Below, one piece after another: positions 4,467-26,536 of a DNA stretch of 64,000 nucleotides. The position numbers and the translations under genes are program-made. The notes beneath the pieces are model-generated. The model saw only the letters and a program-made list of their open reading frames with translations. It was not told the origin of the DNA and ran no database searches. The first letter of the stretch is position 1; every line of letters begins with the position of its first letter. Where the stretch lies: NCBI GenBank assembly GCA_001510075.1, contig LFEN01000034.1, positions 354 through 64,353 on the forward strand, written 5' to 3'. This DNA comes from Alphaproteobacteria bacterium casp-alpha2 (lineage in GTDB: Bacteria; Pseudomonadota; Alphaproteobacteria; Rhodospirillales; Casp-alpha2).

Positions 4467-5142
4467 GTCCGGTCCCCATTTTTTTATCGAGGAAGAAAGC
4501 GGCAGTGCCGGCGATAAAGCCGACAAAGGGCAGGCCCCAGTCAGGTGACAGCAGATGAAACAGGGGACCCAAGACAGCGCCGATCATCAGCGCCATGATG
4601 CAGTTGCGCTGGCGGATGCTGGAAAACAGGAAAATGAAATACATCGGATTAAGGAAAATCAGGCTGACGGTGATATAGAACGGCAATGTCCCCGCCAAAT
4701 GATAGCCCACCGCCGTGCCGAGCACACCCGCCGCCATGGAGACGGCACCAAGCCCGATGTAATAGGGTCCGCGCTGGTGATCGCCCAGTTCCGGGGCGCG
4801 TCTCAGGGTCAACGCCCAGGTGTTGACGCTCATCATCGCCACCAGAATATAGCGCCAGCGCCAGATGCCGGGATCGGCCCGGAACAGCGGCATCATCGAC
4901 AGCGACATCGGCAGGAACCTGAGGTTGGCCATGGACGAGGCCAGTGCAATGGCCAGTACCGGCGCGCCGACGGCGAAAAGCTCGACAAACGCCACCTGCC
5001 CCGGCAGGCCCCAGACCGTCGCCGTCGAGGCGACGGCAACGCCAAAGGTGATGCCGATATCCTGGCTTAGCGAGCCGAAACCGATCATCGAGGCGCTGAC
5101 CACCCAGACGGGCATGCGAAAGGCGTCGGCGACGCCTCGCAT
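4459..5142 (-). CDS. azlC: AzlC-family branched-chain amino acid permease subunit
   Basis: 227-aa polytopic protein with AzlC-like sequence ([29 protein letters not shown]) and an azlD partner. Confidence 0.8.
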
Positions 5143-5262
5143 AAAGGCTTCACGGCGTTCGCCGGGGCTGGATGTTGCGGGCTCGGAAATAACGCGTCCT
5201 TTTCAGCCGGTTGTTCGGGGGCTACTTTATGCCTCAGCAGGGAGCAGGAAAAGGTAGAAGCC

Positions 5263-5703
5263 GTGAGTAGTATCAATAGGGAAAGCATTACCCTTGTTAC
5301 CGGGGTTATTGGCGCCGATACGCACATCGTCGGCAACCGGATACTGTCCATGGGCCTGGAGGAAGCCGGCTTCAAGGTCGTGACCTTGGGGGCGTTGACG
5401 CCAGCGGCGGAATTCGTCAAGGCGGCCATCGAAACAGCCGCCGACGGGATCATGGTGTCGTCACTCTATGGCCAGGGGGAACTGGATTGCCGGGGTTTTC
5501 GCGACCTTTGCATCGAAGCCGGCCTGGACGGTATTTTACTCTACATCGGCGGCAGCCTGGTCGTCGGCAAGCAGGAATGGTCCGAGGTCGAAGGGCGCTT
5601 TTTAGGCATGGGGTTTGATCGTGCTTTTGCCAACGCCACCCGTGTCGAGGACGTGGTCGAGGCGCTGGACAAAGATTTCGCAGCGCGGAAAAAGTCCGGT
5701 TAA
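5263..5703 (+). CDS. glmS: Glutamate (methylaspartate) mutase S-subunit homologue, B12-binding
   Basis: [12 protein letters not shown] contains the DxHxxG cobalamin-ligand motif. There is near-colinear similarity to clostridial GlmS/MutS ([27 protein letters not shown]). The start is GTG. Confidence 0.85.
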
Positions 5704-7091
5704 TGAGCGCCGCCCTTCTGATTGATTTTGGCTCGACCTTTACCAAGCTTCGCGCCATCGATTTGGCGGATGGAAATATCATCGGCTCGGGCCAAGGCCC
5801 GTCGACGGTCGAGACCGACGTCACCGAGGGGTTGAGCACCGCGCTCGCAGACCTTGAAGGCCATCTAGGCGCCCTGCCGAATTTCAAACACCGGCTGGCC
5901 TGTTCCAGCGCCGCCGGGGGGCTTGGCATGGTGACGGTCGGGCTGGTCCGGGAGTTGACCGCCGAAGCGGCAAAGCAGGCGGCGCTTGGCGCCGGTGCGA
6001 AGTTGACGGGGGCATTTTCCTACGGCCTGACAAAAGGCGATATCGCCGACATAGAACGCCTGGCCCCGGATATTATTTTATTGGCCGGCGGCACCGATGG
6101 CGGCAATGCAGAGGTGATCCTGGAAAATGCTGCCAAGTTGGCCGCTGCCGGGCTCACCTGTCCGGTGGTCATCGCCGGTAACCGCGAAGCGGCGGAAGAA
6201 GTAGCCGCCTTGCTGGAGGCCGCTGGTTCACCTGTTATCGTCACTGAAAACGTCATGCCGGAATTCGGTGTGCTGAATGTCGAGCCGGCCCGCGCCGCCA
6301 TTCGTCAGGTTTTTATCGACCGTATCGTTCACGCCAAGGGCATCGACAAGGCGGCGGCACTGTTCGACGCGGTGCTGATGCCGACCCCGGCGGCCGTGCT
6401 CGAAGGGGCCAGATTATTGTCGGCCGGGCATGGTGATATCGCCGGACTGGGGCCGCTGGTCGTCGTCGATGTCGGCGGCGCCACCACGGATGTGCATTCC
6501 GTCGCCGACGGTGCGCCGACGAAAGAAGGCGTCATCGCCCACGGCTTGCCGGAACCGCATCTCAAACGGACGGTCGAAGGCGACCTTGGTATGCGAATTA
6601 ACGCTGCCGCCATCGCCGAGGCGGCGGGATTGGAGCAATTGGCCGCTGGCGCCGGGTTGGCGGTTGCCCGTGCCGAAGAAATTCTGCAAATGCTGTCCGC
6701 CGACATAGAACGCCTTCCCGACGGTGAAGACGAACAGCGCTTCGACCAGACCCTGGCCGAAGCGGCCCTGAAAATTGCCATGACCCGTCATGCCGGCTCC
6801 CTTGCCATCGTGCAGACGGTGGCCGGGCCGGTCAGTGTCCAAACCGGCAAGGATTTGGGCCAAATCAAAACCCTGATCGGCACCGGCGGTGTGCTGGCGC
6901 ACGGCAAGAACCCGGCGGCGGCCTTGATGGCGACCCTGGCGGACCCTTTGGTTCCGCAATCGCTCAAGCCCCAGGCGCCGGATATTCGCCTCGACAAAGA
7001 CTATGTGCTTTTTGCCGTCGGCCTGTTGGCGGAACGTGAGCCAGAGGCTGCCTTGACGCTGGGTATCCGCCACATGCATTCTGTCACATGA
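5703..7091 (+). CDS. glmL: GlmL/MutL-type mutase accessory (chaperone-like ATPase) protein
   Basis: [22 protein letters not shown]-terminus and 462-aa length are as in clostridial MutL. The gene sits between the S and E subunits, with TAATG and ATGA overlaps. Confidence 0.8.
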   Translation: MSAALLIDFGSTFTKLRAIDLADGNIIGSGQGPSTVETDVTEGLSTALADLEGHLGALPNFKHRLACSSAAGGLGMVTVGLVRELTAEAAKQAALGAGAKLTGAFSYGLTKGDIADIERLAPDIILLAGGTDGGNAEVILENAAKLAAAGLTCPVVIAGNREAAEEVAALLEAAGSPVIVTENVMPEFGVLNVEPARAAIRQVFIDRIVHAKGIDKAAALFDAVLMPTPAAVLEGARLLSAGHGDIAGLGPLVVVDVGGATTDVHSVADGAPTKEGVIAHGLPEPHLKRTVEGDLGMRINAAAIAEAAGLEQLAAGAGLAVARAEEILQMLSADIERLPDGEDEQRFDQTLAEAALKIAMTRHAGSLAIVQTVAGPVSVQTGKDLGQIKTLIGTGGVLAHGKNPAAALMATLADPLVPQSLKPQAPDIRLDKDYVLFAVGLLAEREPEAALTLGIRHMHSVT

Positions 7092-8575
7092 ACTTAAATT
7101 CTGACGATACACCCATTTCGGCAGCGGCGATCCCGGCGGATGATTTTGCCCTCATGCGCACCGAAAACCTCGCCCGCTGGCCTACCGGGGCGGACGTGGA
7201 CCTGGACGAAGCCGTCGAATTTCACAAATCCTTGCCCCAGGAAAAGCAACTGGGGTGGGTCATGCGCCGGGCGGCGGAAGAAGGCCGCTGCCTGACACAA
7301 CCGCGCGGCGGTTTCGGGACCCTGGAGCTGCAACTGGAACTGATGCGCGCGCTGGATCAGGACGGCATGGCCGACATCGTGCCGACGACCACGGACAGCT
7401 ATACCCGCAACGAACAATGGGAACAGGCGGCCACGGGGATAGAGGAATCCAAGCGCCAGGGTCGTTCCATGCTGAACGGTTTTCCCATGGTCAATTACGG
7501 GCCGAAAGAAGCCCGCAAGCTGATCGAAGCCATCAACAAGCCGGCCATTGTGCTGTCGGGAACGGCGATGCCGCGCTTGACCTGCGAAGTCGGCTTTGCC
7601 GCCGGATTTTCCGGCTATCTCGGTTCCGGCATTGCCTACACCACGTCCTATACCAAGGATACCTCCATCGCCGAGGGCATCCGCAATTATCAATACCTTG
7701 ATCGTCTGGCGGCGCTTTATCAGGAAAAGGGCGTCGAATTACACAGGAGACAGCCCGGTTTTCTTACCGGCACCAATGTGCCGCCCTGCATTGCCATTGC
7801 CGTCGGCGTGTTGGACGCCTTGTTGGCGGCGGGCCAAGGGGTCAAAAACTACGGCCTGGAACTGGCCCAGACCCTGCACCTGATCCAGGACGCCGCGGCG
7901 ATAAAAGTTTGCGGCGAACTGGCGCAGGAATATCTGCTGGCGGCCGGCTTTGAGGATATGTTCACCCCGGTGACATCGTTGCACTGGATGGGCGCGTGGC
8001 CGCAGGATGATGCCCAGTCGGCGGCCCTGGTGTCTTATGGTGGCACACTGGCGGCGGTCGGGGGCGCGGTCAGTGTCACTACTAAAAGCACCCACGAGGC
8101 CTACGGTATCCCGACACCCGCGGCCAACGCCGAAGGGCTGCGCACGACCCGCATGGCGGTCTATCTGGCGCGCCACATCCGCCTCGATGACTTGCCGGAA
8201 TTTAAAGCCGAAGTCGACTTGTTGCGGCGCGAAACCCGCCCCATCATCGACAAGGCCCTGGAAATGGGCGACGGCGACGCTGCCCTGGGCGCCGTCCGGG
8301 CGTTGGAAGCGGGGGCGCTGGATATCCCCTGGTCGCCGAGCCGGTTCGTAAAGTCCCGGGTAATGCCGGCCCGCGACGCCGACGGATACCTTAGAATTTA
8401 TGACCCCGGCGACATGGTTTTTGCCAGTGATGTGGCCGAAATACATACCGAGCGCCTGAAAAAGCGCGCCGAAGTTGAAGGGGTGGCCTTTGATCGCAAT
8501 CTGGCGGTAAAAAGTGTCTATGAAATATCCGAACCGCTGGACAAACTGCTGCCGTTTCCCTGGGCGGCAGAGTAA
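7088..8575 (+). CDS. glmE: Glutamate mutase E-subunit homologue with divergent active-site residues
   Basis: Colinear with C. cochlearium GlmE as I recall it: QPRGG, TDSYTR, GRSMLNGFPMVNYG, LTGTNVPP, AGQGVKN, TKSTHEAYGIPT. See the finding on the substitutions at positions 149 and 171. Confidence 0.85.
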   Translation: MNLNSDDTPISAAAIPADDFALMRTENLARWPTGADVDLDEAVEFHKSLPQEKQLGWVMRRAAEEGRCLTQPRGGFGTLELQLELMRALDQDGMADIVPTTTDSYTRNEQWEQAATGIEESKRQGRSMLNGFPMVNYGPKEARKLIEAINKPAIVLSGTAMPRLTCEVGFAAGFSGYLGSGIAYTTSYTKDTSIAEGIRNYQYLDRLAALYQEKGVELHRRQPGFLTGTNVPPCIAIAVGVLDALLAAGQGVKNYGLELAQTLHLIQDAAAIKVCGELAQEYLLAAGFEDMFTPVTSLHWMGAWPQDDAQSAALVSYGGTLAAVGGAVSVTTKSTHEAYGIPTPAANAEGLRTTRMAVYLARHIRLDDLPEFKAEVDLLRRETRPIIDKALEMGDGDAALGAVRALEAGALDIPWSPSRFVKSRVMPARDADGYLRIYDPGDMVFASDVAEIHTERLKKRAEVEGVAFDRNLAVKSVYEISEPLDKLLPFPWAAE

Positions 8576-8611
8576 CGCTATAATCAATAAAACACATAGG
8601 AAGCCCTTACC

Positions 8612-10036
8612 ATGAGCCAAGCCGCGCCCGCTCCGCAATCCGAGAGCGAATCCGAAATAATCCAAGGTCTGATAGATCGCGCCCGCACGGCGATGAAAGC
8701 GATTGCCGACGCCGATCAAGCCCGTATCGACGAGGCGGTCACCGCCTTGGCATGGTCTATTTACGAGCCCGACCGGGCCAAGGAACTGGCGGAACTCGCC
8801 GTCAGGGATACCGGCCTCGGCAACGTCGAGAGCAAGATCATCAAGAACCAGCGCAAGACCTTCGGTTGTCTGCGCGACCTGATGCGGGTCAAGACCGTCG
8901 GCGTGATCGAGGAAATCCCGGCAAAAGGTCTGGTCAAATACGCCAAACCCGTCGGCGTCGTCGCCGCCGTGTCGCCATCGACCAATCCGGCGGCAACACC
9001 CGTCAACAAGGCGATGATGGCCTTGAAGGGCGGCAACGCGGTGATCATCGCGCCGAGCCCCGCCGGAATGGGGCCGACGACAAAAACCGTCGATTACATG
9101 CGCGCTGAATTGGAAAAAATCGGCCTGCCTGCCGATCTGGTGCAGGTACTGCCCAGTCCGGTCAACAAGGCGCTGACCCAGTCCTTGATGGAAGCCTGTG
9201 ATCTGGTTGTCGTTACCGGATCGCAAAACAATGTGCGCCGGGCCTATTCGTCGGGCACGCCGGCGATTGGCGTCGGCGCCGGCAATGTCTCGGTGATTAT
9301 CGATTCCACGGCAAATCTCAAAGACGCCGCGGAAAAAATCACCATGTCGAAAATTTTCGACAACTCGACATCGTGCTCGTCGGAAAATGCGGTGATTATT
9401 CTGGACGATGTTTATGACGACGCTATCGCGGCGCTCAAAGCTGCGGGCGGATATCTGGCGGATGCGGACGAAAAGCAGAAAATCCAGGATACGCTCTGGG
9501 TTGACGGGCATCTCAACCGCCATGTCATCGCCAAGGATGCCGACGTGCTGGCCAAACAAACCGGCCTTTCCGGCGAGGCGGAAAAGGCTAAATTTTTTAT
9601 GGTCGAGGATGAAAACCCCGGCCCCGGCCATCCTTTTGCCGATGAAAAACTGTCCCTGGTGTTGACGGTCTACCGGGCGTCCGATTTCGCCGACGCCATG
9701 GCCCAGGTCGATGCCATCATGGATGTCTGCGGGCGCGGCCATTCGGTCGGTATCCATACCGGGGACATGGACCATGCCCGCAAACTGGCCGAAGACCTTC
9801 AGGTCGTCCGTGTGCTGGTCAATCAGGCGCACACGTTCGGTAACGGCGGCAGCTTTACCAACGGCCTCGACTTCACCCTGACCATGGGTTGTGGCACCTG
9901 GGCCGGGAATTCCATTTCCGAAAACCTGAACTACAAGATGTTCATCAACACCACCCATCTGGTAACGGAAATCCCCGAGGACAAACCGTCCGAAGAAGAA
10001 TTGTTCGGCGATTACTGGGCGAAATACAGCAAATGA
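8612..10036 (+). CDS. CoA-acylating aldehyde dehydrogenase (AdhE-N / EutE / SauS-type, ALDH family 20-like)
   Basis: Motifs PVGVVAAVSPSTNPAATP, AYSSGTPAIGVGAGN, FDNSTSCSSENA (catalytic Cys) and GCGTWAGNSISENL match the acylating ACDH family. Confidence 0.8.
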   Translation: MSQAAPAPQSESESEIIQGLIDRARTAMKAIADADQARIDEAVTALAWSIYEPDRAKELAELAVRDTGLGNVESKIIKNQRKTFGCLRDLMRVKTVGVIEEIPAKGLVKYAKPVGVVAAVSPSTNPAATPVNKAMMALKGGNAVIIAPSPAGMGPTTKTVDYMRAELEKIGLPADLVQVLPSPVNKALTQSLMEACDLVVVTGSQNNVRRAYSSGTPAIGVGAGNVSVIIDSTANLKDAAEKITMSKIFDNSTSCSSENAVIILDDVYDDAIAALKAAGGYLADADEKQKIQDTLWVDGHLNRHVIAKDADVLAKQTGLSGEAEKAKFFMVEDENPGPGHPFADEKLSLVLTVYRASDFADAMAQVDAIMDVCGRGHSVGIHTGDMDHARKLAEDLQVVRVLVNQAHTFGNGGSFTNGLDFTLTMGCGTWAGNSISENLNYKMFINTTHLVTEIPEDKPSEEELFGDYWAKYSK

Positions 10037-11166
10037 ACTTCGAAGAATACGCGGGCAAGCCGCTATTGAAAGCGGCCGGCATTGCCGTGCCGGACGGAAA
10101 ACTAGCCACCATGTCTGACGAGGCGGCGGACGCCTTTGACGCCATCGGGCCATGTGTCGTCAAGGCGCAGGTGCCGACCGGCAAGCGCGGCAAGGCGGGC
10201 GGCATCAAGATCGCCGACAGCGCCGACGAGGCACGGGCGGCGGCGGAGGCTATCCTCGGCATGGATATCGCCGGCCACACGGTGGCCAGTGTGCTGGTCG
10301 AGGGGCGGTCTGAAATCAGGCGCGAGTATTATGCCGCCGTCATGAACTCCCCCGAGACAAAAGGTCCCATGGTCCTGTTTTCAGCCCTGGGCGGCATGGA
10401 TATCGAGGAAGCCGCGGCCCAGGACGCTGACGCCGTTCGCAGACACCCGGTCGATGTGCGCGACGGCTTTTCGGCGGCCGATGGCGAGCGGATGCTGGAT
10501 GGCCTCGACCTCGACGGCGCGCAAGTGGAGATCGCGGGTATTTTGGCAAAGCTCTATACGGCGTACCGGGAAAACGACGCCGAACTGCTGGAAATAAACC
10601 CTTTGGCGATGACCCACAAAGGCTTGATGGCGCTGGATTGCAAGTTCGTCATGGACGATTCTGCTATCAAGCGTCATCAGGAACTGGCCGCCACCGGCAC
10701 GCCGGAAAGGCTGACCGGGCTGGAATTGCGCGGCGAAGGAGCCGGCATCAAATACATCGAGTTGGACGGCGACGTCGGCGTGCTCGCCAACGGCGCCGGG
10801 CTGACGATGACGACCATGGACGTCGTCCGCCACCATGGCGGCAGGCCGGCAAATTTTTGCGAGATCGGCGGCGCCGCCTATACGAAGGCGCAGGCTGCCC
10901 TGGAAATGGTCCTCGACAAGCCGGGCGTCAAAAGCCTGGTGGTCAATTTCTGCGGCGCGTTTGCGCGCTGTGAAGTGATGATGGAAGGCCTTTTGAACGC
11001 CTGGGATGAAATAAAACCCGACATCCCGGTATTTTTTTCAATCGCCGGCACCGGTGATGAGGAAGCCATCGCCATGCTCAAGGATAGGCTCGGCATTGAC
11101 CCATTGCCCGACATGGACGCCGCCTGCAAGGCCGCCGTCGATGCAGCCAGGGAGGGGTCCAAATGA
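10033..11166 (+). CDS. ADP-forming acid-CoA ligase beta subunit (SucC-like ATP-grasp)
   Basis: ATG at 10033 overlaps the upstream stop (ATGA). MNFEEYAGKPLLKAAGIAVP, VVKAQVPTGKRGKAGGIK and LEINPL are succinyl-CoA-synthetase-beta-like. Confidence 0.8.
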   Translation: MNFEEYAGKPLLKAAGIAVPDGKLATMSDEAADAFDAIGPCVVKAQVPTGKRGKAGGIKIADSADEARAAAEAILGMDIAGHTVASVLVEGRSEIRREYYAAVMNSPETKGPMVLFSALGGMDIEEAAAQDADAVRRHPVDVRDGFSAADGERMLDGLDLDGAQVEIAGILAKLYTAYRENDAELLEINPLAMTHKGLMALDCKFVMDDSAIKRHQELAATGTPERLTGLELRGEGAGIKYIELDGDVGVLANGAGLTMTTMDVVRHHGGRPANFCEIGGAAYTKAQAALEMVLDKPGVKSLVVNFCGAFARCEVMMEGLLNAWDEIKPDIPVFFSIAGTGDEEAIAMLKDRLGIDPLPDMDAACKAAVDAAREGSK

Positions 11167-12038
11167 AGATCGTACGCGGTCATCACCGGGTCCTCATCCA
11201 GGGTATCACCGGCAAGCAGGGCACGTTCTGGACCGAACGCATGCAGGAATACGGCACCAACGTCGTCGGCGGGGTAAACCCTAAAAAAGCCGGCACCACC
11301 CATTGCGGCGTGCCGGTGTTTGCGTCCGCCGCCCTGGCCATGAAAGAAGTCGAATTTGACGTTTCCGTGTTGTTTATTCCACCCCTGGGCGTCAAGGACG
11401 CCGCCCTGGACGCCATCGAGGCCGGGGCCAAGAACCTCTGTATTTTGACCGAACATATCCCCGTGCAGGACGTCATGGTGTTTCTGGCCGCTGCCCAAGA
11501 CAAGGGCACCAGCATCACCGGACCTAACACGGCGGGCTCCGTCACCATCGGCGAATGCTTCACCGGGTTCATGCCGGCCTTTAACGAGCGCATCTTCAAA
11601 AAAGGCGCCGTCGGCGTGATGTCGCGATCGGGTAGCCTGGGCACGCTGATGTGCCAGAACATCGTCTCGGCAGGCTACGGCCAGTCGGCCTTCATCGGTA
11701 TCGGCGGCGACCCCATCATCGGCACGACGACTAGCCAAGCGCTGGAAGCGCTTGATAATTTTGAAGATACCGAGGCGGTGGTGATCGTCGGTGAAATCGG
11801 CGGCGCCATGGAAGAAGACGCTGCCCTTTACGCGAAAACCATGTCCAAACCCGTCATCGCCTTTATCGCCGGTGGTGCCGCCCCGCCGGGCAAGAAGATG
11901 GGCCACGCCGGGGCCATCGTCTTGGGCGACAAGGGAACCTACAAGTCCAAGAAAGAGGCGCTCGAAGGGGCCGGGGTTACGGTGCTCGATACGCCGTCCG
12001 ATGTCGGCAAGGTTCTGAAAGACCGTTTAAAGGCCTGA
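11163..12038 (+). CDS. ADP-forming acid-CoA ligase alpha subunit (SucD-like)
   Basis: VLIQGITGKQGTF (CoA/NDP fold), SRSGSLG and GHAGAIV (phosphohistidine loop) are present. ATGA overlap with the beta subunit. Confidence 0.85.
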   Translation: MKIVRGHHRVLIQGITGKQGTFWTERMQEYGTNVVGGVNPKKAGTTHCGVPVFASAALAMKEVEFDVSVLFIPPLGVKDAALDAIEAGAKNLCILTEHIPVQDVMVFLAAAQDKGTSITGPNTAGSVTIGECFTGFMPAFNERIFKKGAVGVMSRSGSLGTLMCQNIVSAGYGQSAFIGIGGDPIIGTTTSQALEALDNFEDTEAVVIVGEIGGAMEEDAALYAKTMSKPVIAFIAGGAAPPGKKMGHAGAIVLGDKGTYKSKKEALEGAGVTVLDTPSDVGKVLKDRLKA

Positions 12039-13358
12039 AATCAGCACCCAGGCAATGGCCAGTGGTGCGATATACCGGCAAATGATGCGCCACAGTCCCA
12101 CATAGCGGAAACCGTCGCCGATGCCGCCCTGGTTGCCGTCCATGACCTTGTCGAACACGACCCAGCCGACGAACAGGGAAATAAATATCCCGCCTGTCGG
12201 CAGCAGGATGTTCGACGCCAGATAATCCATGGCATCGAAGAAGCCCTTGCCGGCGACGGTGTAATCGTTCCAGATGCCGAGGGACAGGGACGACGGGATG
12301 CCGAGCAGGAAAATAGCAATCCCTGAACTCAACGCTGCTTTAGGCCGGGCGATGCCTTTTTCATCGACCAGATAGGCGACCACCACCTCGATTAGCGAAA
12401 TTGCCGATGTCAGCGCCGCCACCGCCAGAAGAACGAAGAACAAGACGCCGAAAAAAGCGCCGAAGGGAATCTTCGAGAACACGGCGGGCAGGGTAATGAA
12501 CGTCAGCCCCGGCCCCGCGCCGGGGTCGAAACCGAAGGCAAACACGGCAGGCAAAATCATGAACCCGGCCATCACCGCGATCAGGGTATCCAGCGATGTA
12601 ACCCAAAGCGCCGCGCCTGGAAGATTTGTCGTTCTAGCCAGATAAGAGCCGTAGGTGATCATGGTGCCCATGCCCAGTGATAGCGAGAAGAAAGCGTGGC
12701 CGAGGGCGGCGGTGATCATGGCGCCGTCGACCTTGGAAAAATCCGGACTAAGGAAAAAAGCAACGCCCTTGGCGGCACCCGGCAGGGTCAGCGAGCGTAC
12801 GCACAATACTACCAGCAGAATAAACAATACCGGCATCAACACCCGGCACGTACGTTCGATGCCGGTATCGATGCCACGGGCGACGACGGCGATGGTCGCC
12901 AGCATGAACAGGGCGTGGTAGATAATCGGTTCCACCGGGTCACCGATAAACGCCCCGAAAGCAGCCCCCAGCGCTTTTGCGTCCCCGGACGCCATCAACC
13001 CCGTCGCCGATTTGACGGCATAAGCGACGGTCCAGCCGCCGACGACGCTGTAAAATGACAGGATGATAAATCCGGTGAAAACACCCATGACGCCGATGGC
13101 TGTCCATGCGCCGCCCTTCAGGTGCCTGAAGGCGCCGACCGGATTGCGCTTGGTTCTTCGCCCAATGGCGAATTCCGCCAGCATAACGCTGAGCCCGATG
13201 GAGAGGATGAAGCCTAAGTAGATGATCAAAAAAGCGCCGCCGCCGTTTTGGCCGGCGAGATAGGGGAACTTCCAAATATTGCCGAGGCCGACGGCAGAAC
13301 CGGCGGCGGCGAGAATAAACCCTGCCCTGGTGGTGAATTGTCCGCGAACGCCTGACAT
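12027..13358 (-). CDS. Sodium-dependent transporter, neurotransmitter:sodium symporter (NSS/SNF) family
   Basis: The N-terminal signature GFILAAAGSAVGLGNIWKFPYLAGQNGGGAFL is diagnostic of the NSS family. 443 aa, polytopic. Confidence 0.9.
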   Translation of the reverse strand: MSGVRGQFTTRAGFILAAAGSAVGLGNIWKFPYLAGQNGGGAFLIIYLGFILSIGLSVMLAEFAIGRRTKRNPVGAFRHLKGGAWTAIGVMGVFTGFIILSFYSVVGGWTVAYAVKSATGLMASGDAKALGAAFGAFIGDPVEPIIYHALFMLATIAVVARGIDTGIERTCRVLMPVLFILLVVLCVRSLTLPGAAKGVAFFLSPDFSKVDGAMITAALGHAFFSLSLGMGTMITYGSYLARTTNLPGAALWVTSLDTLIAVMAGFMILPAVFAFGFDPGAGPGLTFITLPAVFSKIPFGAFFGVLFFVLLAVAALTSAISLIEVVVAYLVDEKGIARPKAALSSGIAIFLLGIPSSLSLGIWNDYTVAGKGFFDAMDYLASNILLPTGGIFISLFVGWVVFDKVMDGNQGGIGDGFRYVGLWRIICRYIAPLAIAWVLISGL

Positions 13359-13376: not shown

Positions 13377-14129
13377 CTAGAATACCGCCCTTCGGATCAG
13401 GTTTAAACCGATGATCAACAAAATCACCAACATCACCTTGCGGAATGTTTCCTGGTCGATGCGGTCGCGAATGACTTCGCCAATGCGGATGCCGACCATC
13501 CCCGGTACGCAAGCCGCGATGGAAAGCGGGATGATGTCGCCGGTAAATATGCCGTTGCGCCAATAGGCGATGGCCAGGGGGATGGCGAGACAAAACCATG
13601 CCAGCCCGACGGTGCGCACGAAGGCCTCCTTGGGCAGCTTCAGCATGACAAAATACATCATCATCGGCGGCCCCCAGATGGTGGTGATGCCGCCCAGCAA
13701 CCCGCCAAGGGCGCCGGCCATCGGTCCCAGCCATTTTTCCGTTTCAGGCGTGATCGGATGCACCCGAGGTTTGGCCAGATTAAGGGCGGAAAACGTGGCG
13801 ACGATGGCGCCTAAAATAGCAAACAGCACGGCGGTATCGATGATGACGACCAACTCGGCGCCGATGAACAGGCACACCAGGGCAACGACGATCATTAACC
13901 AGAACCGGCTGAGCGGCTGCAACAAGTTTCCCGCCCGCACCGCCTGCCACAGGTTGGTAACCAGGATCGGCGCCACCAAAAGGCCGAGCACGCTCAACGG
14001 CGGCAAAAAGTTCAGCAAGATAGCCATGCTTACGATCGGCAGACCAAGTGCGACAATGCCCTTGACGATGCCGCCGACGATCAGCGCCGCCGAGATGATC
14101 GCCAGCATATCCCATTCGTAGCCGAACAT
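13377..14129 (-). CDS. TauE/SafE-family (DUF81) anion exporter, sulfite-exporter-like
   Basis: 250-aa protein with about 8 TM segments and the internal duplicated Gly-rich helices typical of TauE/SafE. It lies 18 nt upstream of the NSS gene on the same strand. Confidence 0.75.
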   Translation of the reverse strand: MFGYEWDMLAIISAALIVGGIVKGIVALGLPIVSMAILLNFLPPLSVLGLLVAPILVTNLWQAVRAGNLLQPLSRFWLMIVVALVCLFIGAELVVIIDTAVLFAILGAIVATFSALNLAKPRVHPITPETEKWLGPMAGALGGLLGGITTIWGPPMMMYFVMLKLPKEAFVRTVGLAWFCLAIPLAIAYWRNGIFTGDIIPLSIAACVPGMVGIRIGEVIRDRIDQETFRKVMLVILLIIGLNLIRRAVF

Positions 14130-14221: not shown

Positions 14222-14938
14222 ATGGAGGGGGTATTGAAAGTTTCGATCTGGCGCGGCGGCAAGGTTGGCCGCTTCGTTGCCTATGAGGTGCCGAGGCTGG
14301 AAAACCAGACGGTGCTGGATGTCGTCACCTATGTGCAGCGCAAACTGGACCCAAGTTTAAGCTACCGGTTTTCGTGCCGCGTCGGCATGTGCGGGTCCTG
14401 CGCCATGACGGTAAACGGCAAGCCCCGGTGGACGTGTCGCACGCATGTGTCAAAGGTCGCTGTTGGCGGGACGCTGGAAATTGCCCCCTTGGGCAATCTG
14501 GCCGTCATCAAGGATTTGTCCGTAGACATGCGGGTCTTCTTCGACAAGTGGGCCAAGGCCGGCGGCGCCTTCAAGGGCGACAAAACCAGGGACGATGACT
14601 TCGCTCTGATCAAGCCTGCGGACAAACAGCGCCAGAACGCCAACGCCGGTATCGAATGCATCGGTTGCGGGGTCTGTTACGCCGGCTGCGATGTCGTCCG
14701 ATGGAAACCCGATTACCTGGGCCCGGCGGCGCTCAATCGCGCCTGGACGCTGGTCAATGACGCCCGCGATACCCAGGGCCCGGTCCGGCTGCAACTCATC
14801 GCCGGGGAAAACGGCTGTCTCGGATGCCATTCCCAGCAAAGCTGCCAGGAACACTGCCCCAAACATCTGAGCCCGACGGCGTCTATCGCCGGCCTGAAAC
14901 GCGCCGTCAGTGTGGCGGCGCTGAAGGGCCGGTTATGA
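14222..14938 (+). CDS. Succinate dehydrogenase / fumarate reductase iron-sulfur subunit
   Basis: Three Cys clusters: CRVGMCGSCAMTVNGKPRWTC (2Fe-2S), CIGCGVCYAGC (4Fe-4S), CLGCHSQQSCQEHCP (3Fe-4S). Confidence 0.85.
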   Translation: MEGVLKVSIWRGGKVGRFVAYEVPRLENQTVLDVVTYVQRKLDPSLSYRFSCRVGMCGSCAMTVNGKPRWTCRTHVSKVAVGGTLEIAPLGNLAVIKDLSVDMRVFFDKWAKAGGAFKGDKTRDDDFALIKPADKQRQNANAGIECIGCGVCYAGCDVVRWKPDYLGPAALNRAWTLVNDARDTQGPVRLQLIAGENGCLGCHSQQSCQEHCPKHLSPTASIAGLKRAVSVAALKGRL

Positions 14939-15303
14939 ACGCCGATCTCGCCTATGCCGATAAGATGGATAGCCGGTTGTGGCTGATCCAGCGCATCACT
15001 GCGGTTGTGCTGGCCGTTGCCGTTGTTGTCCATCTGGCAACCATCATTGTTGCCGTTCAGGGTGGCCTGTCGGCGGCGGAAATCGTTTCCCGCGTCGGTG
15101 GAAGCTTGGGTTGGGCAATGTTTTATGGTGTGTTCGTGGTTGCCGCCGGTCTCCACGCACCGATCGGATTGCGCACCATTTTACGCGAAATGACGCCGCT
15201 GTCGCCGGGCGCGACCAATGGGCTGATGATAGCGTTTGGCACGGTGCTGATGGGGTTCGGTTTTCGGGCCGTCCTGGCCTTTTACGAGATGGGGGGCGGA
15301 TGA
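14935..15303 (+). CDS. Small hydrophobic membrane-anchor subunit of the FRD/SDH-like complex
   Basis: 122 aa with 3 predicted TM helices. ATGA overlaps at both ends. Assigned by position and hydrophobicity only. Confidence 0.55.
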   Translation: MNADLAYADKMDSRLWLIQRITAVVLAVAVVVHLATIIVAVQGGLSAAEIVSRVGGSLGWAMFYGVFVVAAGLHAPIGLRTILREMTPLSPGATNGLMIAFGTVLMGFGFRAVLAFYEMGGG

Positions 15304-15644
15304 CAATGACAAGTCATAGGAGCCATCCATCCTATTGGGCGTTTGTGCTGCACCGGGTATCGGGGCTGGTGCTGGCGGTGTTTCTGCCCTTTCATTTCAG
15401 CCTGCTGGTTCAGGCTACCGAGTATGCAGTGGGGTTTGACGGCTTCCTGAAATGGTCTGAACAGCCGATGGTGAAACTGGCCGAAACCGGGCTTATTGTA
15501 TTGCTCGCCCTGCACCTGACCGGCGGGGTGCGGCTGCTGGCGCTGGAGTTCCTTGCGTGGCGGGATTGGCAAAAGACCCTGGTTGCCGTTTGCGGGGGCT
15601 TGAGCCTCGCCATCGGGCTTTTGTTTCTGGTCAACGCCGTTTGA
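15300..15644 (+). CDS. Small hydrophobic membrane-anchor subunit (FrdC-like) of the FRD/SDH-like complex
   Basis: 114 aa with 3 TM helices. The N-terminus SYWAFVLHRVSGLVLAVFL resembles the FrdC pattern. Confidence 0.55.
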   Translation: MTMTSHRSHPSYWAFVLHRVSGLVLAVFLPFHFSLLVQATEYAVGFDGFLKWSEQPMVKLAETGLIVLLALHLTGGVRLLALEFLAWRDWQKTLVAVCGGLSLAIGLLFLVNAV

Positions 15645-15678
15645 CCGGGCTTAAATCATTGAGGAACGGAAATAGGCC

Positions 15679-16554
15679 ATGAAGATTGATCTGGAAGCCA
15701 TCGAAGAAACGGCCAAGCTGTTGTATATCCGCGCCCTCAAGGTGCTGCCGGATGACATCAAGGACGGGTTTCAAAGACTCGACGCCTCCGAGACCGACGC
15801 CACCGGCAAATCCATCCTGGCGACGATGATCAAAAATATCGACGTCGCCGAGGACACGGATAACCTGTTGTGCCAGGACACGGGCATTCCCATTTACAAC
15901 GTCACCATCGGGCGCGGCGTCGAAACCGACGGCATCGATCTGAAAGACGCCATCCGCAAAGGCTGTGCGCGCGCGACAACGGAATATCCGCTGCGCTCTT
16001 CCGTCGTTCATCCGGTGACCCGTGTTAACGAACACACGTCGTGCGGCCATCGGGTGCCGGTCATCAACATCGATTTTTCCGATCAGGCGGAAGAGCTGGT
16101 GATTGAAATGATCCCCAAGGGCTCTGGCTCGGAAAACGGCTCGTTCCTGAAAATGTGCATCCCGGCGGAAGGCTTGGGCGGCATCAAGACCTTCGTCATC
16201 GACAAGGTCATGGAGGCCGGCGGCAAGGTCTGCCCGCCGACCATCGTCGGCGTCGGCGTCGGCGGCACGGCGGACCTTTGCTCAAAATTGGCGAAGATCG
16301 CCGCAACGCGGCCCCTGGGGTCTGTTTGCGGCGACCCGGAAGGCGCCAAGCTGGAACAAGAACTGGGCCGGGCCGTCAACAGCCTCGGCATCGGGCCGCA
16401 GGGGCTGGGCGGCGATTCGACGTCTTTTGCGGTGCATGTGGAAATTGCGGCGACGCACATCACCATGAACCCGGTCGCCGTCAACATTCAATGCCACTCC
16501 GCCCGCCGTGCCCGGGCGACGTTTAAACCCGATGGCGTCGAGATTGGATTTTAA
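15679..16554 (+). CDS. Class-I Fe-S hydro-lyase alpha subunit (fumarate hydratase N-terminal domain / tartrate dehydratase TtdA type)
   Basis: 291 aa. Contains CQDTGIP, the Fe-S ligand motif of class-I fumarase/tartrate dehydratase, and is colinear with the N-terminal half of FumA. Confidence 0.85.
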   Translation: MKIDLEAIEETAKLLYIRALKVLPDDIKDGFQRLDASETDATGKSILATMIKNIDVAEDTDNLLCQDTGIPIYNVTIGRGVETDGIDLKDAIRKGCARATTEYPLRSSVVHPVTRVNEHTSCGHRVPVINIDFSDQAEELVIEMIPKGSGSENGSFLKMCIPAEGLGGIKTFVIDKVMEAGGKVCPPTIVGVGVGGTADLCSKLAKIAATRPLGSVCGDPEGAKLEQELGRAVNSLGIGPQGLGGDSTSFAVHVEIAATHITMNPVAVNIQCHSARRARATFKPDGVEIGF

Positions 16555-16555
16555 G

Positions 16556-17167
16556 ATGGCGGATTATAATTTTTCCATGCCGTGTACGGAAGACGACATC
16601 CGCAAACTTCGCATCGGCGATCACGTAACGCTTCAGGACACCTTGTTTGGTATCCGCGATGCGACACAAATCCATATGTTCGACAAAGGCCGGGAAACCC
16701 GACTGGACCTGAACGGCCACGCGGTCATCCACACGGCGCCGAATGTCAAAAAAGTGCCGGTCAGCAATTCCTGTCCGGCGGGCTATCAGTCGATCTGTAT
16801 CGGCACGACAACGTCGGCGCGGATGGAACGCTTCACCCGGCCACTGATGGAACGCAATGGTGTTCGCATCATCATCGGCAAGGGCGGGCTGGGGTCTGAC
16901 AGCGCCGCCGCCTTCAAGGAGCTGGGCGGTGTTTATCTCGCCATTATCGGCGGCACGGCGGCGCTGGAAACCACCTGGATCGACAGGATCCTCGATGCCG
17001 ATCTCGATGACCTCAACCCGGAAAGCCTGTGGCAGTTCGAAATTCATGACTTCGGCCCCCTGCTGGTGGCCATGGACGCTAATGGCGACAGCCTCTATGA
17101 CGCCGTTCGGGACACGGCCGAAGAGAGACGCGCGGCAGCGCTGGCAAGCATGGGCGTCGATACTTGA
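16556..17167 (+). CDS. Class-I Fe-S hydro-lyase beta subunit (FumA C-terminal domain / TtdB type)
   Basis: ATG lies 1 nt after the alpha-subunit stop. Contains GDHVTLQDTLFGIRDATQ and IIGKGG, which are beta-subunit motifs. Confidence 0.85.
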   Translation: MADYNFSMPCTEDDIRKLRIGDHVTLQDTLFGIRDATQIHMFDKGRETRLDLNGHAVIHTAPNVKKVPVSNSCPAGYQSICIGTTTSARMERFTRPLMERNGVRIIIGKGGLGSDSAAAFKELGGVYLAIIGGTAALETTWIDRILDADLDDLNPESLWQFEIHDFGPLLVAMDANGDSLYDAVRDTAEERRAAALASMGVDT

Positions 17168-25606: not shown

Positions 25607-26536
25607 CTAACCGGCGTTGGCGGCGTTGGCGACAATGGCGGCAAGGATGGTGGCGGCGAAGCGCGCTTCGGGCGGGTCGGCGCGCGATGTCAGCACGATC
25701 GGCACCTTGGTCCCCAGGACCACGCCTGCGGCCAGGCCGCTCATGAAATAGACCATCATTTTGAACAGCCCGTTGCCGGTCTCGATATTGGGCACGACCA
25801 GAATATCCGCCTGCCCCGCGACCGGGCCGCCCATCCCCTTGATCTTCGCCGCCTCCGGCGAGATGGCGTTATCGAAGGCAAAGGGGCCGTCGATCAGACA
25901 ACCGGTAATGCCGAAGTCGCCCGCCTTTTCGATGATCTCCGCCGCCTCGACGCTGGACGGCATGGAATGATTGACTGTTTCAGCACCCGATAATAACGCC
26001 ACCTTCGGCGCCGGGTTGCCGAGGGCGTGGCTTAGCTCGACGGCGTTCTTGATAATATCGACCTTGGTTTTCAGGTCCGGTGCGATGTTGACGGAAGCGT
26101 CGGTGATCAGCAGCACCCGTTCGCGGCCGGGAATGGTCATGTGAAAAACGTGGCTGACGCGGCGCTCGCCCCTGAGCCCTGTATCGCGGTCCAACACGGC
26201 GCGCATAATCGTCTCGGTATGGACATAGCCTTTCATCACCGCATGCACCTGGCCTTCGGCGGCGAGAAAGACGGCGGCGTCAGATGCTTCCGCTTCGCCA
26301 TTGGTGTTGATGATTTCGATTTCCCGGATATCCCAGCCGATGACGTCGGATAGCGACTGGATGAGGTCGCTATCGCCGATCAGCACCGGGGTGATCAGCC
26401 CGGCGTCTGCGGCTTGGCGCACGCTTTCCAGGACGATTTCATTATCCGCCCCGGCGACGGCCATGCGGCTCCGGGGCAGGCCTTTCGCCTTTTCCAGCAG
26501 ATACGCAGGGACTTCAAAAGGCGCATCGCTCAGCAT
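25607..26536 (-). CDS. pta: Phosphate acetyltransferase (short Pta)
   Basis: 309-aa PTA_PTB fold (ADILVVPNIETGN). It lies 6 nt downstream of xsc, the arrangement seen in sulfoacetaldehyde clusters. Confidence 0.8.
   Translation of the reverse strand: MLSDAPFEVPAYLLEKAKGLPRSRMAVAGADNEIVLESVRQAADAGLITPVLIGDSDLIQSLSDVIGWDIREIEIINTNGEAEASDAAVFLAAEGQVHAVMKGYVHTETIMRAVLDRDTGLRGERRVSHVFHMTIPGRERVLLITDASVNIAPDLKTKVDIIKNAVELSHALGNPAPKVALLSGAETVNHSMPSSVEAAEIIEKAGDFGITGCLIDGPFAFDNAISPEAAKIKGMGGPVAGQADILVVPNIETGNGLFKMMVYFMSGLAAGVVLGTKVPIVLTSRADPPEARFAATILAAIVANAANAG

Follow-up and report, generated by a model that had tools for sequence, protein, structure and literature searches.

Genes for a glutamate-mutase-like B12 enzyme with a remodelled substrate site, next to a sauS-sauC-sauD sulfoacetate module

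Known systems and organization of the six genes

The closest described relative of the mutase discussed here is glutamate mutase (EC 5.4.99.1) of Clostridium cochlearium and C. tetanomorphum, which consists of GlmS and GlmE with the accessory protein GlmL (also MutS, MutE and MutL; PDB 1CCW, 1CB7, 1I9C and 6H9E). In this enzyme R66, R149 and E171 bind the glycyl moiety, and R100 and Y177 bind the acrylate moiety (PMC10947579). For sulfoacetate, the enzyme SauS and the ADP-forming ligase SauCD of Bilophila wadsworthia have been characterised, and the gene order sauS-sauC-sauD was described in the same organism (PMC10413351). No mutase has been reported with the published sauS clusters.

The window, i.e. 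the whole stretch of 64,000 nucleotides that was analysed, harbors six plus-strand ORFs (Table 1) which encode the S, L and E proteins of a GlmSLE-like mutase, the L protein being presumed to act as mutase chaperone or reactivase, followed by an aldehyde dehydrogenase (ALDH) and the two subunits of a SucCD-like ligase. Neighbouring genes overlap (TAATG at 5701-5705, where the glmL-like start overlaps the glmS stop; ATGA at 7088, 10033 and 11163, the one at 10033 coupling the SucC-like gene translationally to sauS), and the run has a single gap of 36 nt. Functional motifs are the base-off/His-on B12 motif DTHIVG (res. 19-24 of the GlmS-like protein), the ALDH motif FDNSTSCSSENA (res. 249-260, with the catalytic-Cys motif CSSE at residue 255) and the phosphohistidine loop GHAGA (GHAGAIV, residue 247 of the SauD-type subunit). 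The original prediction had described these co-directional genes with their overlaps, gap and motifs as B12-binding S subunit, GlmL, E subunit, ALDH, SucC-like and SucD-like; ORF calls, sequence and motif positions agree with that description, and Pfam and NCBIfam profile scores uphold the family assignments of all six proteins. Comparison with three relatives gave dN/dS values of 0.08-0.20 for the six genes (0.10-0.13 for glmS-like, 0.08-0.09 for glmE-like), and such purifying selection indicates real genes and not chance ORFs. They probably form one operon built from two modules, glmSLE-like and sauS-sauC-sauD, the co-transcription of which we infer rather than observe.

Table 1. Features of the locus and its surroundings in the window (scores in bits where so marked).
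Feature	Position	Strand	Evidence or remark
Presumed promoter region of the operon	5143..5262	.	Intergenic, between divergent azlC (4459-5142, minus) and glmS-like; role from gene layout; consensus sigma-70 site not found in a sequence scan
GlmS-like small subunit, B12-binding	5263..5703	+	PF02310; NF002612 188 bits, cutoff 110
GlmL/MutL-type accessory protein	5703..7091	+	PF13941 534 bits; NF040745 580 bits, cutoff 475
GlmE-like catalytic subunit, remodelled substrate site	7088..8575	+	Met_asp_mut_E 446, cutoff 390; gap-free alignment to 1CCW/1CB7 chain B
Spacer glmE-like/sauS	8576..8611	+	36 nt; TATAAT 8579-8584; RBS AGGAAG 8598-8603; no plus-strand terminator-like site found in a sequence scan
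SauS, CoA-acylating sulfoacetaldehyde dehydrogenase	8612..10036	+	NF047625 equivalog 790.6 bits, cutoff 600; Aldedh
SucC-like ligase subunit	10033..11166	+	PF08442 plus PF00549; 337, below SucC equivalog cutoff of 370
SauD-type alpha subunit, CoA-binding	11163..12038	+	PF02629 plus PF00549; 325, below SucD equivalog cutoff of 336
SNF-family Na+-dependent transporter	12027..13358	-	PF00209; NF037979 140 bits; convergent with sauD
TauE/SafE-family anion permease (sulfite or sulfoacetate export)	13377..14129	-	PF01925
SdhB-SdhC-SdhD-FumN-FumC-SdhA-like operon	14234..18894	+	Pfam; non-canonical succinate-dehydrogenase/hydratase module
pta	25607..26536	-	PTA_PTB Pfam match
xsc	26543..28318	-	TIGR03457 950 bits (equivalog cutoff 676); NF005713 subfamily 1022 bits (cutoff 620)
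AptA-type omega-aminotransferase	28465..29775	+	631, cutoff 500

Substrate site of the GlmE-like subunit

In NCBIfam, the three mutase proteins all score above the equivalog cutoffs of the S, L and E models of methylaspartate mutase, and members of the clade carry that name in every source. This would befit a true glutamate (methylaspartate) mutase whose active site is unusual and whose methylaspartase gene lies elsewhere in the genome. The GlmE-like protein shares only ca. 41% identity with the solved glutamate mutases (alignment to 1CCW/1CB7), and its clade is discrete, with at least 63% identity inside and no more than 42% to GlmE proteins outside it; one full-length representative of the 50% clusters was found at 63% identity and the next best matches were at or below 42%.

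Alignment columns were counted over 80 clade members, using C. cochlearium numbering. The residues R66, R100, Y177, Y181, K326 and E330 are retained in the protein of the window and in 80/80 members. The window protein carries the changes R149L, E171L, N170Y, H150S and E214R; those at 149, 171 and 214 occur in all 80 sequences, and tyrosine at 170 and S/T at 150 are invariant or nearly so throughout the clade. Every member accordingly keeps the contacts to the propionate half (R100, Y177) of glutamate, and those to the glycyl half and its amine (R149, E171) are both leucine. All 35 glutamate-signature representatives, which have E171, also keep R149 and E214 and show the motif RR[QES]R[HG]xEYYEFKE, mostly as RRQRH[FY]EYYEFKE, where the clade instead has RRIL[ST]YLYYRWKE. 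Since the amine contact E171 and the alpha-carboxylate contact R149 are leucine in 80/80 members, with arginine in place of E214, a normal glutamate mutase is very unlikely, as had been predicted. The conserved enolase-type partner of the clade, which is not a methylaspartase (see below), argues the same way. Judged by these residues, the enzyme probably rearranges a different, non-amino and likely sulfonated acid, in a reaction as yet undescribed; the original prediction knew of no such AdoCbl-dependent pathway, and the literature searched held neither enzyme nor pathway of this kind.

Linkage to sulfonate genes and an enolase-superfamily partner

With an ALDH that scores as SauS and a ligase that matches the described SauCD, the pair is the known module interconverting sulfoacetate and sulfoacetaldehyde. 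What is new in the locus is the GlmSLE-like mutase. The acid handled by ligase and ALDH had been proposed as substrate or product of the mutase. This part of the prediction fails: the ALDH scores as SauS (791 bits, cutoff 600), and sulfoacetate, a two-carbon compound with one non-carboxyl carbon, cannot undergo a glutamate-mutase-type 1,2-shift and cannot be either substrate or product of the mutase. The second half of the sulfoacetaldehyde route is represented by the pta, xsc and AptA-type genes. The SNF-family transporter, which is next to TauE in relatives as well, may import taurine or a different sulfonate. TauE proteins form a broad family, membership in which is no proof of sulfite handling. 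A SauXYZ-type TTT transporter was not found in the window.

The two modules could be unrelated neighbours, packed into an island of sulfonate and organic-acid catabolism that contains many unrelated catabolic genes. The spacer before sauS has an exact TATAAT box and its own ribosome-binding site, and a candidate -35 hexamer with 3/6 matches; an internal promoter here would be weak, and transcription of sauS could possibly start from it as well. Moreover, the isolate Thalassospiraceae LMO-SO8 has the enolase/Sdh module with no glmSLE within 10 kb. Against mere coincidence, the rare gene sauS lies within 10 kb of the mutase in 32/80 loci from three proteobacterial classes, and orientations, ligase types and intervening genes vary by locus, for which inherited synteny alone is insufficient; we consider unrelated neighbours improbable. 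The glmE-sauS adjacency is retained in at least 11 relatives. Gene orders vary among Alpha-, Beta- and Gammaproteobacteria, SauS is followed by a SauCD-type ligase in some loci and by an AMP-forming SauT-type ligase in others, and the equivalog cutoffs are also exceeded by proteins from diverse mutase loci, six of them SauS-like and two Xsc-like. The neighbourhood survey called for in the original prediction thus found the linkage in many genomes, and sulfonate chemistry, one of its two suggested substrate sources, is the best-supported context. That the mutase core can also occur without the sau module is seen in roughly half of the long loci, where SauS is absent within 10 kb.

Most relatives pair the mutase with an enolase-superfamily gene, found in 45/80 loci and mostly immediately upstream of glmS. 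Among the 35 loci of at least 15 kb, such a gene of the MLE type occurs in 27, SauS in 16, SauS plus ligase in 14, TctA in 16 and a Zn-ADH-like gene in 15; a TctA gene is also located ca. 13 kb upstream of glmS, outside the window. The enolase-type partner is an MR/MLE-branch protein that matches PF13378 only; among PDB entries it is closest to the L-Ala-D/L-Glu epimerase 1JPM (E=5e-27), and it scores below all NCBIfam named-family cutoffs. It adjoins TauE in many loci, directly upstream in the maps of the close relatives L010, L014, L017, L024, L087, L088 and L090. In the window, neither an enolase-superfamily nor a methylaspartase gene was found by Pfam tables (positions ca. 1-60900) or by a separate scan of the 549-aa ORF at 61733-63382. 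When 46 enolase-superfamily proteins associated with the clade were compared with the complete window by tblastn, the best match had E=0.016 over 28 aa; in the ca. 9.5 kb upstream of the window, such a gene was likewise not found. The predicted absence of this lyase from the 64 kb stands, but to describe the operon simply as lacking methylaspartase overlooks the MLE-type gene of most relatives. That gene is missing in the window, L007 and L008, and we conclude that the window and its two closest relatives have lost it at this site. If the enzyme is an obligatory lyase, the pathway is incomplete here or completed elsewhere in the genome.

Proposed role and comparison with known systems

Building on the observed gene identities, active-site changes, recurrent linkage and purifying selection, we favor an explanation with two modules, a radical mutase for a substrate other than glutamate, with a likely sulfonated migrating group X, and a sulfoacetate module; its probability is roughly one half. 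Read from sequence, the most likely candidate function of GlmSLE is the B12-dependent rearrangement of a 3-substituted propionate that bears no amine and is probably sulfonated. The enzyme would be an adenosylcobalamin radical mutase with intact cofactor machinery and an intact acrylate-forming pocket for -CH2-CH2-COO-, whereas the pocket for the migrating group would have lost the amine acceptor E171 and the carboxylate-binding R149 and gained R214. The 5′-deoxyadenosyl radical would take a hydrogen alpha to the carboxylate of -OOC-CH2-CH2-X, fragmentation would give bound acrylate and an X radical, and X would re-add at the neighbouring carbon. X would be anionic, without amine, and given the gene company most likely sulfonate-bearing; candidate reactions are 3-sulfopropanoate to or from 2-sulfopropanoate and 4-sulfobutanoate to or from 2-methyl-3-sulfopropanoate. 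We know of no established natural occurrence of 2-sulfopropanoate or 4-sulfobutanoate. By analogy with methylaspartase, the MLE-type enzyme may abstract the alpha proton, followed by elimination of sulfite, exported by TauE, or by racemisation. SauS, SauCD and Xsc would finish sulfonated C2 units: SauS-SauCD may convert sulfoacetate with ATP and CoA via sulfoacetyl-CoA to sulfoacetaldehyde, or operate in reverse, and Xsc and Pta would partner them via acetyl phosphate and sulfite to acetyl-CoA, with the TauE exporter nearby. What we infer are the class of substrate, the part played by the enolase-type enzyme and the connection of the modules; the exact substrate is a guess.

The Sdh/Fum-like module also travels with the mutase clade. 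Its SdhA-like and FumC-like proteins score under all NCBIfam cutoffs, and the active-site loop of SdhA has a Thr-to-Glu change. The Sdh-like, fumarase-like and 2-hydroxyacid dehydrogenase neighbours are equally compatible with a route for non-sulfonated C5 dicarboxylates. The mutase could accordingly interconvert 2-hydroxyglutarate and 3-methylmalate, or glutarate and methylsuccinate, and feed this module, with the fumarase-like protein as mesaconase, the enolase-type enzyme as dehydratase or epimerase, and sau/xsc nearby for co-regulation, e.g. of carbon assimilation during growth on C2 sulfonates, with no shared intermediates. Slow conversion of L-2-hydroxyglutarate to 3-methylmalate is known for glutamate mutase, and the mesaconase of clostridia is of the class I fumarase type, with two subunits. 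In L033 and L039, glmSLE lies between the fumarase-like subunit genes FumN and FumC, beside SdhA-like; gamma loci continue with genes for Ldh_2 and D-2-hydroxyacid dehydrogenase, and the TctABC tricarboxylate/dicarboxylate-type transporter and the loci devoid of SauS fit as well. Such a route does not account for SauS with either ligase type, Xsc and TauE recurring in at least five gene orders, nor for the loss of R149 if the migrating group still bears a carboxylate, and mesaconyl-CoA or citramalyl-CoA enzymes are not among the conserved neighbours. We regard it as rather unlikely.

Compared with clostridial glutamate mutase, the clade has the same S-L-E architecture, Pfam families and DxHxxG motif, an E subunit alignable without gaps, and very probably the same radical fragmentation-recombination logic. 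It differs in the substitutions described above, and occurs in Proteobacteria of sea and soil that are aerobic or facultative, beside sulfonate genes and unpaired with methylaspartate ammonia-lyase. The partner is likewise an enolase-superfamily protein but of another branch, and its recurrence suggests the same logic of mutase followed by alpha-proton abstraction. The sau module resembles that of B. wadsworthia in gene order and in its two-subunit ADP-forming phosphohistidine-loop ligase (SauCD likened by description; PMC10413351), other clade loci use an AMP-forming ligase after SauS like SauS/SauT of Cupriavidus necator H16, and the proximity of Xsc, Pta and TauE is shared with aerobic sulfoacetate degraders. 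Unlike published SauS clusters, the module directly follows a B12 mutase operon on the same strand. HpfXYZ also combines an acylating ALDH and a SucCD-like ligase with TauE, but acts on a sulfonated acid one carbon longer and is partnered by a glycyl-radical enzyme in strict anaerobes, whereas the ALDH of the window scores as SauS, not as generic ALDH, and has a B12 mutase as partner. HpfXYZ shows that such ALDH/ligase pairs exist for C3 sulfonates, compounds that could be substrates of the mutase.

The probable operon and its sulfoacetate module

The six-gene operon on which the original prediction was built matches the sequence in its coordinates, in its overlaps (TAATG at 5701-5705; ATGA at 7088, 10033 and 11163), in its single 36-nt spacer (8576-8611) and in the quoted motifs DTHIVG, FDNSTSCSSENA and GHAGAIV, and the folds agree with Pfam and NCBIfam. 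All six genes are under purifying selection (dN/dS 0.08-0.20 against three relatives), GlmE being the most constrained in this comparison; the closest relatives of the window belong to the marine Rhodospirillales ('MarineAlpha3' and Thalassospiraceae MAGs). Between the glmE-like gene and sauS no terminator-like structure was found on the + strand, and the spacer holds a ribosome-binding site (AGGAAG, 8 nt 5' of the ATG) and a perfect TATAAT (8579-8584) of which the matching -35 hexamer agrees at only 3 of 6 positions. The missing terminator and the weak -35 make read-through from the glmE-like gene into sauS likely, and the perfect TATAAT beside that weak -35 makes an extra internal promoter for sauS-sauCD possible.

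Features of the window and of the adjoining upstream locus L092 (coordinates marked L092 refer to that locus)
Feature	Coordinates	Strand	Assignment or remark
ORF 1, glmS-like	5263-5703	+	B12-binding MutS-type subunit (Pfam/NCBIfam)
ORF 2, glmL-like	5703-7091	+	GlmL/MutL (Pfam/NCBIfam)
ORF 3, glmE-like	7088-8575	+	Met_asp_mut_E (Pfam/NCBIfam)
ORF 4, sauS	8612-10036	+	aldehyde dehydrogenase (Pfam/NCBIfam)
ORF 5	10033-11166	+	SucC-like subunit (Pfam/NCBIfam)
ORF 6	11163-12038	+	SucD-like subunit (Pfam/NCBIfam)
SdhB-SdhC-SdhD-FumN-FumC-SdhA-like operon	14234-18894	+	hydratase genes embedded among dehydrogenase genes
LysR regulator	24661-25596		beside pta-xsc-aptA cluster
pta, xsc	25607-29775 region	- (both)	taurine/sulfoacetaldehyde cluster
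AptA-type omega-aminotransferase	25607-29775 region	+	same cluster as pta, xsc
DAO-FAO_M-GCV_T protein, 825 aa	31200-33677	+	dimethylglycine/sarcosine dehydrogenase type
Hydratase and 422-aa protein	39757-41888	+	MaoC-like double hot-dog (FAS1_DH_region/Htd2), then protein without Pfam match
Glycolate oxidase set	49447-56204	+	GlcD/GlcE/GlcF-like (FAD_binding_4, FAD_binding_4, CCG-domain Fe-S protein); second FAD-oxidase; MOFRL glycerate-kinase-like gene
ORF of 549 aa	61733-63382		scanned separately
S8 peptidase and trypsin-like protease	1642-4116		S8 peptidase secreted
PrpD-TcuA-PrpF set	1-1645 and L092 7128-11167		PrpD-family protein without specific model
TctA, ComD/ComE-like and following genes	L092 1-5676		outside the window, ~9-13.5 kb 5' of glmS

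The aldehyde dehydrogenase is identified as SauS by NCBIfam model NF047625 (790.6 bits, cutoff 600) and carries its catalytic cysteine in a CSSE motif at residue 255. Liu et al. (2023) described for Bilophila wadsworthia that SauS reduces sulfoacetyl-CoA to sulfoacetaldehyde; this NADP(H)-dependent interconversion has been established for no SauS other than those of B. wadsworthia and C. necator, and in aerobic proteobacteria the C-S bond of sulfoacetaldehyde is then cut by Xsc (PMC10413351). Directly after sauS follows a SucCD-type ligase composed of an ATP-grasp beta and a CoA-binding alpha subunit (Pfam), the latter with the phosphohistidine loop GHAGA at residue 247; ATGA overlaps couple sauS to the first ligase gene and the ligase subunits to each other. 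Both subunits score slightly under the NCBIfam cutoffs for housekeeping SucC and SucD, and no NCBIfam model for SauCD matched. We assign the ligase to the SauCD type (BwSauCD: E5Y8P8, E5Y8P7) on its domains, the GHAGA loop and its position after sauS.

A TauE/SafE permease and an SNF transporter are encoded directly 3' of sauD (Pfam). Elsewhere in the window lies a classical degradation cluster for taurine/sulfoacetaldehyde, with Xsc (TIGR03457, 950 bits, equivalog cutoff 676; NF005713, 1022 bits, subfamily cutoff 620), an adjoining Pta (PTA_PTB match) and the AptA-type aminotransferase (631 bits, cutoff 500); the set for the Xsc route (Xsc, Pta, TauE-type exporter) is complete. Judged by the SauS match together with Xsc, Pta, AptA, TauE and SNF, the dehydrogenase/ligase half of the operon belongs to a known kind, the sulfoacetate module. 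Two published descriptions of sauSCD clusters mention no mutase. The proposal that the mutase acts on the very acid handled by this ligase and dehydrogenase fails as stated: sulfoacetate has a single non-carboxyl carbon and so offers no C-C unit for a 1,2-shift of the glutamate-mutase type, which excludes it as substrate or product.

Active site and boundaries of the mutase clade

The GlmS-like protein possesses the DxHxxG base-off/His-on B12 motif (DTHIVG, residues 19-24; NF002612, 188 bits, cutoff 110), and the E subunit matches PF06368 with 459 bits. The latter aligns without gaps to the C. cochlearium structures 1CCW/1CB7 (window position = 1CCW position + 7), and active-site columns were read in the window protein and 79 homologues (n=80, one genome per species). 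Residues R66, R100, Y177, Y181, K326 and E330 (1CCW numbering) are unchanged in all 80, whereas R149 and E171 are both replaced by Leu and E214 by Arg, again in 80/80; N170 is Tyr in 79/80 and H150 is Ser or Thr. Crystallographic analysis showed that R66, R149 and E171 hold the migrating glycyl moiety, with E171 contacting the amine, and that R100 and Y177 hold the acrylate moiety (PMC10947579). Read against these roles, the kept residues leave the cofactor contacts and the part of the site that binds the -CH2-CH2-COO- half intact, and the replaced ones indicate that the amino-acid half of the glutamate site is rebuilt and has lost its amine acceptor. Further Ser/Thr gains lie near known substrate contacts (positions 150, 173, 178, 180 and 182); if they line the pocket, they are compatible with a tetrahedral oxyanion such as sulfonate. 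The variable GlmE positions 125, 150 and 182 showed no pattern when compared with which loci have SauS, the enolase-type gene or Sdh.

In its source, each clade member found bears the name 'methylaspartate mutase subunit E', and the NCBIfam equivalog models for methylaspartate mutase accept them as well. Because the binding residues R149 and E171 are lost, this label is most likely wrong.

A search without a profile, run over 1.84 billion representatives of sequence clusters, delimited the clade (signature RRIL[ST]YLYYRWKE) as discrete, with one full-length representative at 63% identity and all others at 42% or less. Among ~100 full-length representatives of 50%-identity clusters (protein handles P0121-P0270), the glutamate signature (typically RRQRH[FY]EYYEFKE) occurs in 35, and E171 is present in all 35. 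Dozens of other signatures occur in which R100, K326 and E330 are nearly universal; positions 66, 149, 170, 171 and 214 are highly variable, and in many members S and E are fused into one protein of ~640 aa. The GlmE superfamily probably comprises many substrate specificities yet to be described, and the restriction of the glutamate-binding signature to about one third of the representatives amounts to systematic mis-annotation. To our knowledge, the GlmS/GlmE family has had only one described reaction ever since its enzyme was discovered. The original prediction knew of no AdoCbl-dependent pathway with such links to a ligase and a dehydrogenase, and a literature search, outside which most subscription journals lay, likewise found none: no other substrates of GlmE homologues, no B12 mutase in sulfonate catabolism, no aerobic 3-sulfopropanoate pathway and no enolase-superfamily sulfo-lyase, an absence that is not proof.

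Gene neighbourhoods of the clade

A gene caller that scores codon log-odds, with the window as its training set, was applied to the 80 loci; all proteins were clustered and representatives were annotated. The commonest neighbour is an enolase-superfamily protein of ~365 aa (PF13378), mostly encoded immediately 5' of glmS and present in 45/80 loci and in 27 of the 35 loci of 15 kb or more. The corresponding numbers are 33 and 16 for TctA (TTT transporter), 32 and 16 for SauS, 22 and 14 for SauS with ligase, 27 and 15 for a quinone-oxidoreductase-like Zn-ADH, and 12 and 8 for the SdhA-like protein. Six SauS-like proteins, taken from diverse loci, score 744-808 bits (cutoff 600) and two divergent Xsc-like proteins 900-932 bits (cutoff 676). 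In some Burkholderiales-type loci SauCD is replaced by an AMP-forming ligase after SauS, the arrangement of C. necator SauT. Gene order varies: S-L-E-SauS-SauC-SauD lie on one strand in the window and in related loci L007-L015 and L017, SauSCD is divergent or convergent in L027-L032, L041, L043 and L075, the mutase genes are interleaved with transporter genes in L054, L061, L067 and L069, and in L033 and L039 glmSLE sits between both genes for the fumarase-like subunits. That mutase and sau genes have come to lie together repeatedly and in different layouts, in Alpha-, Beta- and Gammaproteobacteria, speaks for a functional link rather than inherited synteny. SauS is not encoded within 10 kb in about half of the 35 long loci. 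The mutase and the enolase-type gene make up the core unit, to which a TTT transporter and the Zn-ADH-like gene are often added; the sau module accompanies it frequently, not obligately.

A recurring link of glmSLE with dehydrogenase and ligase genes, which the original prediction had proposed to look for, is found (SauS with a ligase in 22 loci), and the enolase-superfamily partner in most relatives is of the MLE type, not methylaspartase. Of the earlier interpretation, it stands that the mutase is very probably not an ordinary one and that its link to the dehydrogenase and ligase recurs; these two, however, form a known pair, and sulfoacetate, their acid, cannot be that of the mutase.

The enolase-type protein scores under every NCBIfam cutoff, and its best solved relative is L-Ala-D/L-Glu epimerase (E=5e-27); by sequence it is an uncharacterised member of the MLE branch, not a methylaspartase. 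The earlier statement that the window holds no enolase-superfamily lyase is borne out by gene tables and tblastn. Neither such a gene nor a methylaspartase gene occurs in the Pfam tables of window positions ~1-60900 or of ~9.5 kb upstream, nor in the 549-aa ORF, a few short ORFs near the 3' end being left out; 46 enolase-superfamily proteins of related loci gave only chance matches against the whole window. In the nearest relatives that possess it (loci L010, L014, L087, L088 and L090) the enolase-type gene lies between TauE and a divergent SdhB-like gene, and in the window, L007 and L008 the two flanking genes abut, in the window ~100 nt apart with no remnant in between. The mutase is strongly constrained (dN/dS) even against L008, which also lacks the enolase-type gene. 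Either this gene is located elsewhere in the genome, or it would be auxiliary, for example a racemase. Two homologues of the L010 protein, P0283 and P0288, were rejected as the genome's own copy since they belong to another assembly, GCA_044232495.1.

Five loci (L087, L088, L089, L090 and L091) contain a recurrent module of the enolase-type gene, TauE and often SNF, with divergent SdhBCD, a second, embedded TauE-family gene, SdhA and, in some cases, FumN/FumC. In the isolate Thalassospiraceae bacterium LMO-SO8 (L089; CP134226.1, 777029-798114) it occurs without glmSLE within 10 kb, which marks it as a unit of its own.

Other genes were recorded in passing. TcuA, a tricarballylate dehydrogenase (525 bits against 369), lies in the same stretch as the PrpD-family protein and a PrpF-family isomerase that scores below cutoff; the set is kept in the nearest relatives only and suggests metabolism of tricarboxylates or methyl-branched acids. 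The protease pair keeps its position 5' of azlCD-glmS in many relatives and has no obvious metabolic link. The hydratase and the 422-aa protein, first named MaoC/CoA-transferase, are not among the conserved neighbours.

Marine Rhodospirillales are among the carriers, and one lineage turned up in 78 index blocks of the collected assemblies, Tara Oceans data included. Cultured carriers (Azospirillum oleiclasticum RWY-5-1-1, Azospirillum sp. ST 5-10 and Pelomicrobium sp. G1) exist, so the proposal below is directly testable.

Candidate reactions and comparison with glutamate mutase

The clade to which the mutase half of the operon belongs is well defined, widespread and mis-annotated. Very probably it carries out an AdoCbl-dependent rearrangement that has yet to be described and that is tied to the catabolism of organosulfonates; the whole case rests on comparative sequence evidence. 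The enzyme would take a hydrogen alpha to the carboxylate of -OOC-CH2-CH2-X, the substrate radical would fragment into bound acrylate and an X radical, and X would add back on the adjacent carbon to give -OOC-CH(CH3)-X. The migrating group would lack an amine and, as R66 is kept and R214 gained, is probably still anionic; the sulfonate-gene neighbours make a sulfonate-bearing X the first choice. Candidate reactions are 3-sulfopropanoate <-> 2-sulfopropanoate, in which X would be the sulfonate itself and depart as the sulfite radical anion, and 4-sulfobutanoate <-> 2-methyl-3-sulfopropanoate. Other substrates that each match some features were set aside as unsupported: DMSP, 2-sulfoglutarate and glutamate analogues of the N-acyl or betaine type.

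The main rival is a mutase for a non-sulfonated C5-dicarboxylate, such as one that interconverts 2-hydroxyglutarate and 3-methylmalate and supplies a mesaconase-like hydratase. This rival accounts for the Sdh-like, fumarase-like and hydroxyacid-dehydrogenase neighbours; it leaves the association with sau, xsc and tauE, and the loss of R149, unaccounted for. A full bacterial methylaspartate cycle was set aside; mesaconyl-CoA-type genes are not among the conserved neighbours. As to the dehydrogenase, the SdhA-like protein of the window scores under every NCBIfam cutoff (best TfrA, 503 against 718), and its active-site loop reads VLEEGLRGHG where SdhA/FrdA have (I/V)TEGxRG(E/D)GG; the change of the substrate-contacting Thr to Glu suggests that its substrate is probably not succinate.

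With a sulfonate-bearing substrate, the same neighbours could form a wider route: the Sdh-like enzyme would convert 3-sulfopropanoate to sulfoacrylate, the fumarase-like enzyme sulfoacrylate to sulfolactate, and Ldh_2 or a D-2-hydroxyacid dehydrogenase sulfolactate to sulfopyruvate, which a candidate ComDE-like decarboxylase ~11 kb 5' of glmS (score below cutoff) might turn into sulfoacetaldehyde for Xsc or SauS/SauCD. The best models for this two-subunit TPP enzyme are those of sulfopyruvate decarboxylase (112 against 148; 133 against 221); it follows TctA in L092 and precedes an AMP-forming acyl-CoA synthetase, an SDR and an acyl-CoA dehydrogenase, and the stretch may be a further sulfonate or 2-oxoacid module. 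The enolase-type enzyme might act as methylaspartase does, removing the proton at the alpha carbon and expelling sulfite from the beta carbon, with export by TauE, or it might racemise an alpha-sulfo acid.

We consider it quite unlikely that the enzyme is the first AdoCbl mutase shifting a sulfonate group, interconverting 3-sulfopropanoate and 2-sulfopropanoate via enzyme-bound acrylate and the sulfite radical anion. Were it so, SauCD/SauS/Xsc might process the alpha-sulfo product in the manner of sulfoacetate, or the Sdh-/fumarase-like route might take the beta-sulfo isomer, the enolase-type enzyme acting as racemase or sulfo-lyase; B12 radical chemistry would enter aerobic marine organosulfonate catabolism, and mutases for 3-substituted propionates would be numerous in the GlmE superfamily, a large reservoir of such enzymes.

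More generally, the clade is widespread in proteobacteria and combines a preserved radical machinery with a rebuilt site for the migrating group, which points to a B12-dependent rearrangement of a new kind. Its steady company of SauS, sulfoacetate-CoA ligases of both kinds, Xsc and TauE suggests a step of organosulfonate degradation not described before, with a bearing on marine sulfur and carbon cycling and on oceanic B12 demand.

Similar to glutamate mutase (EC 5.4.99.1), the clade has the B12 motif and the Met_asp_mut_E fold with the cofactor-ribose contacts K326 and E330. The 'arginine claw' R66, R100 and R149, by which glutamate mutase grips both carboxylates of glutamate, is incomplete, and E171, the hydrogen-bond partner of the substrate amino group, is absent throughout. 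Whereas glutamate mutase pairs with methylaspartate ammonia-lyase, the window is without one and the relatives possess an MLE-type gene instead. If a sulfonate group is indeed shifted, the pair of acrylate and sulfite radical anion would parallel the pair of acrylate and glycyl radical in glutamate mutase.
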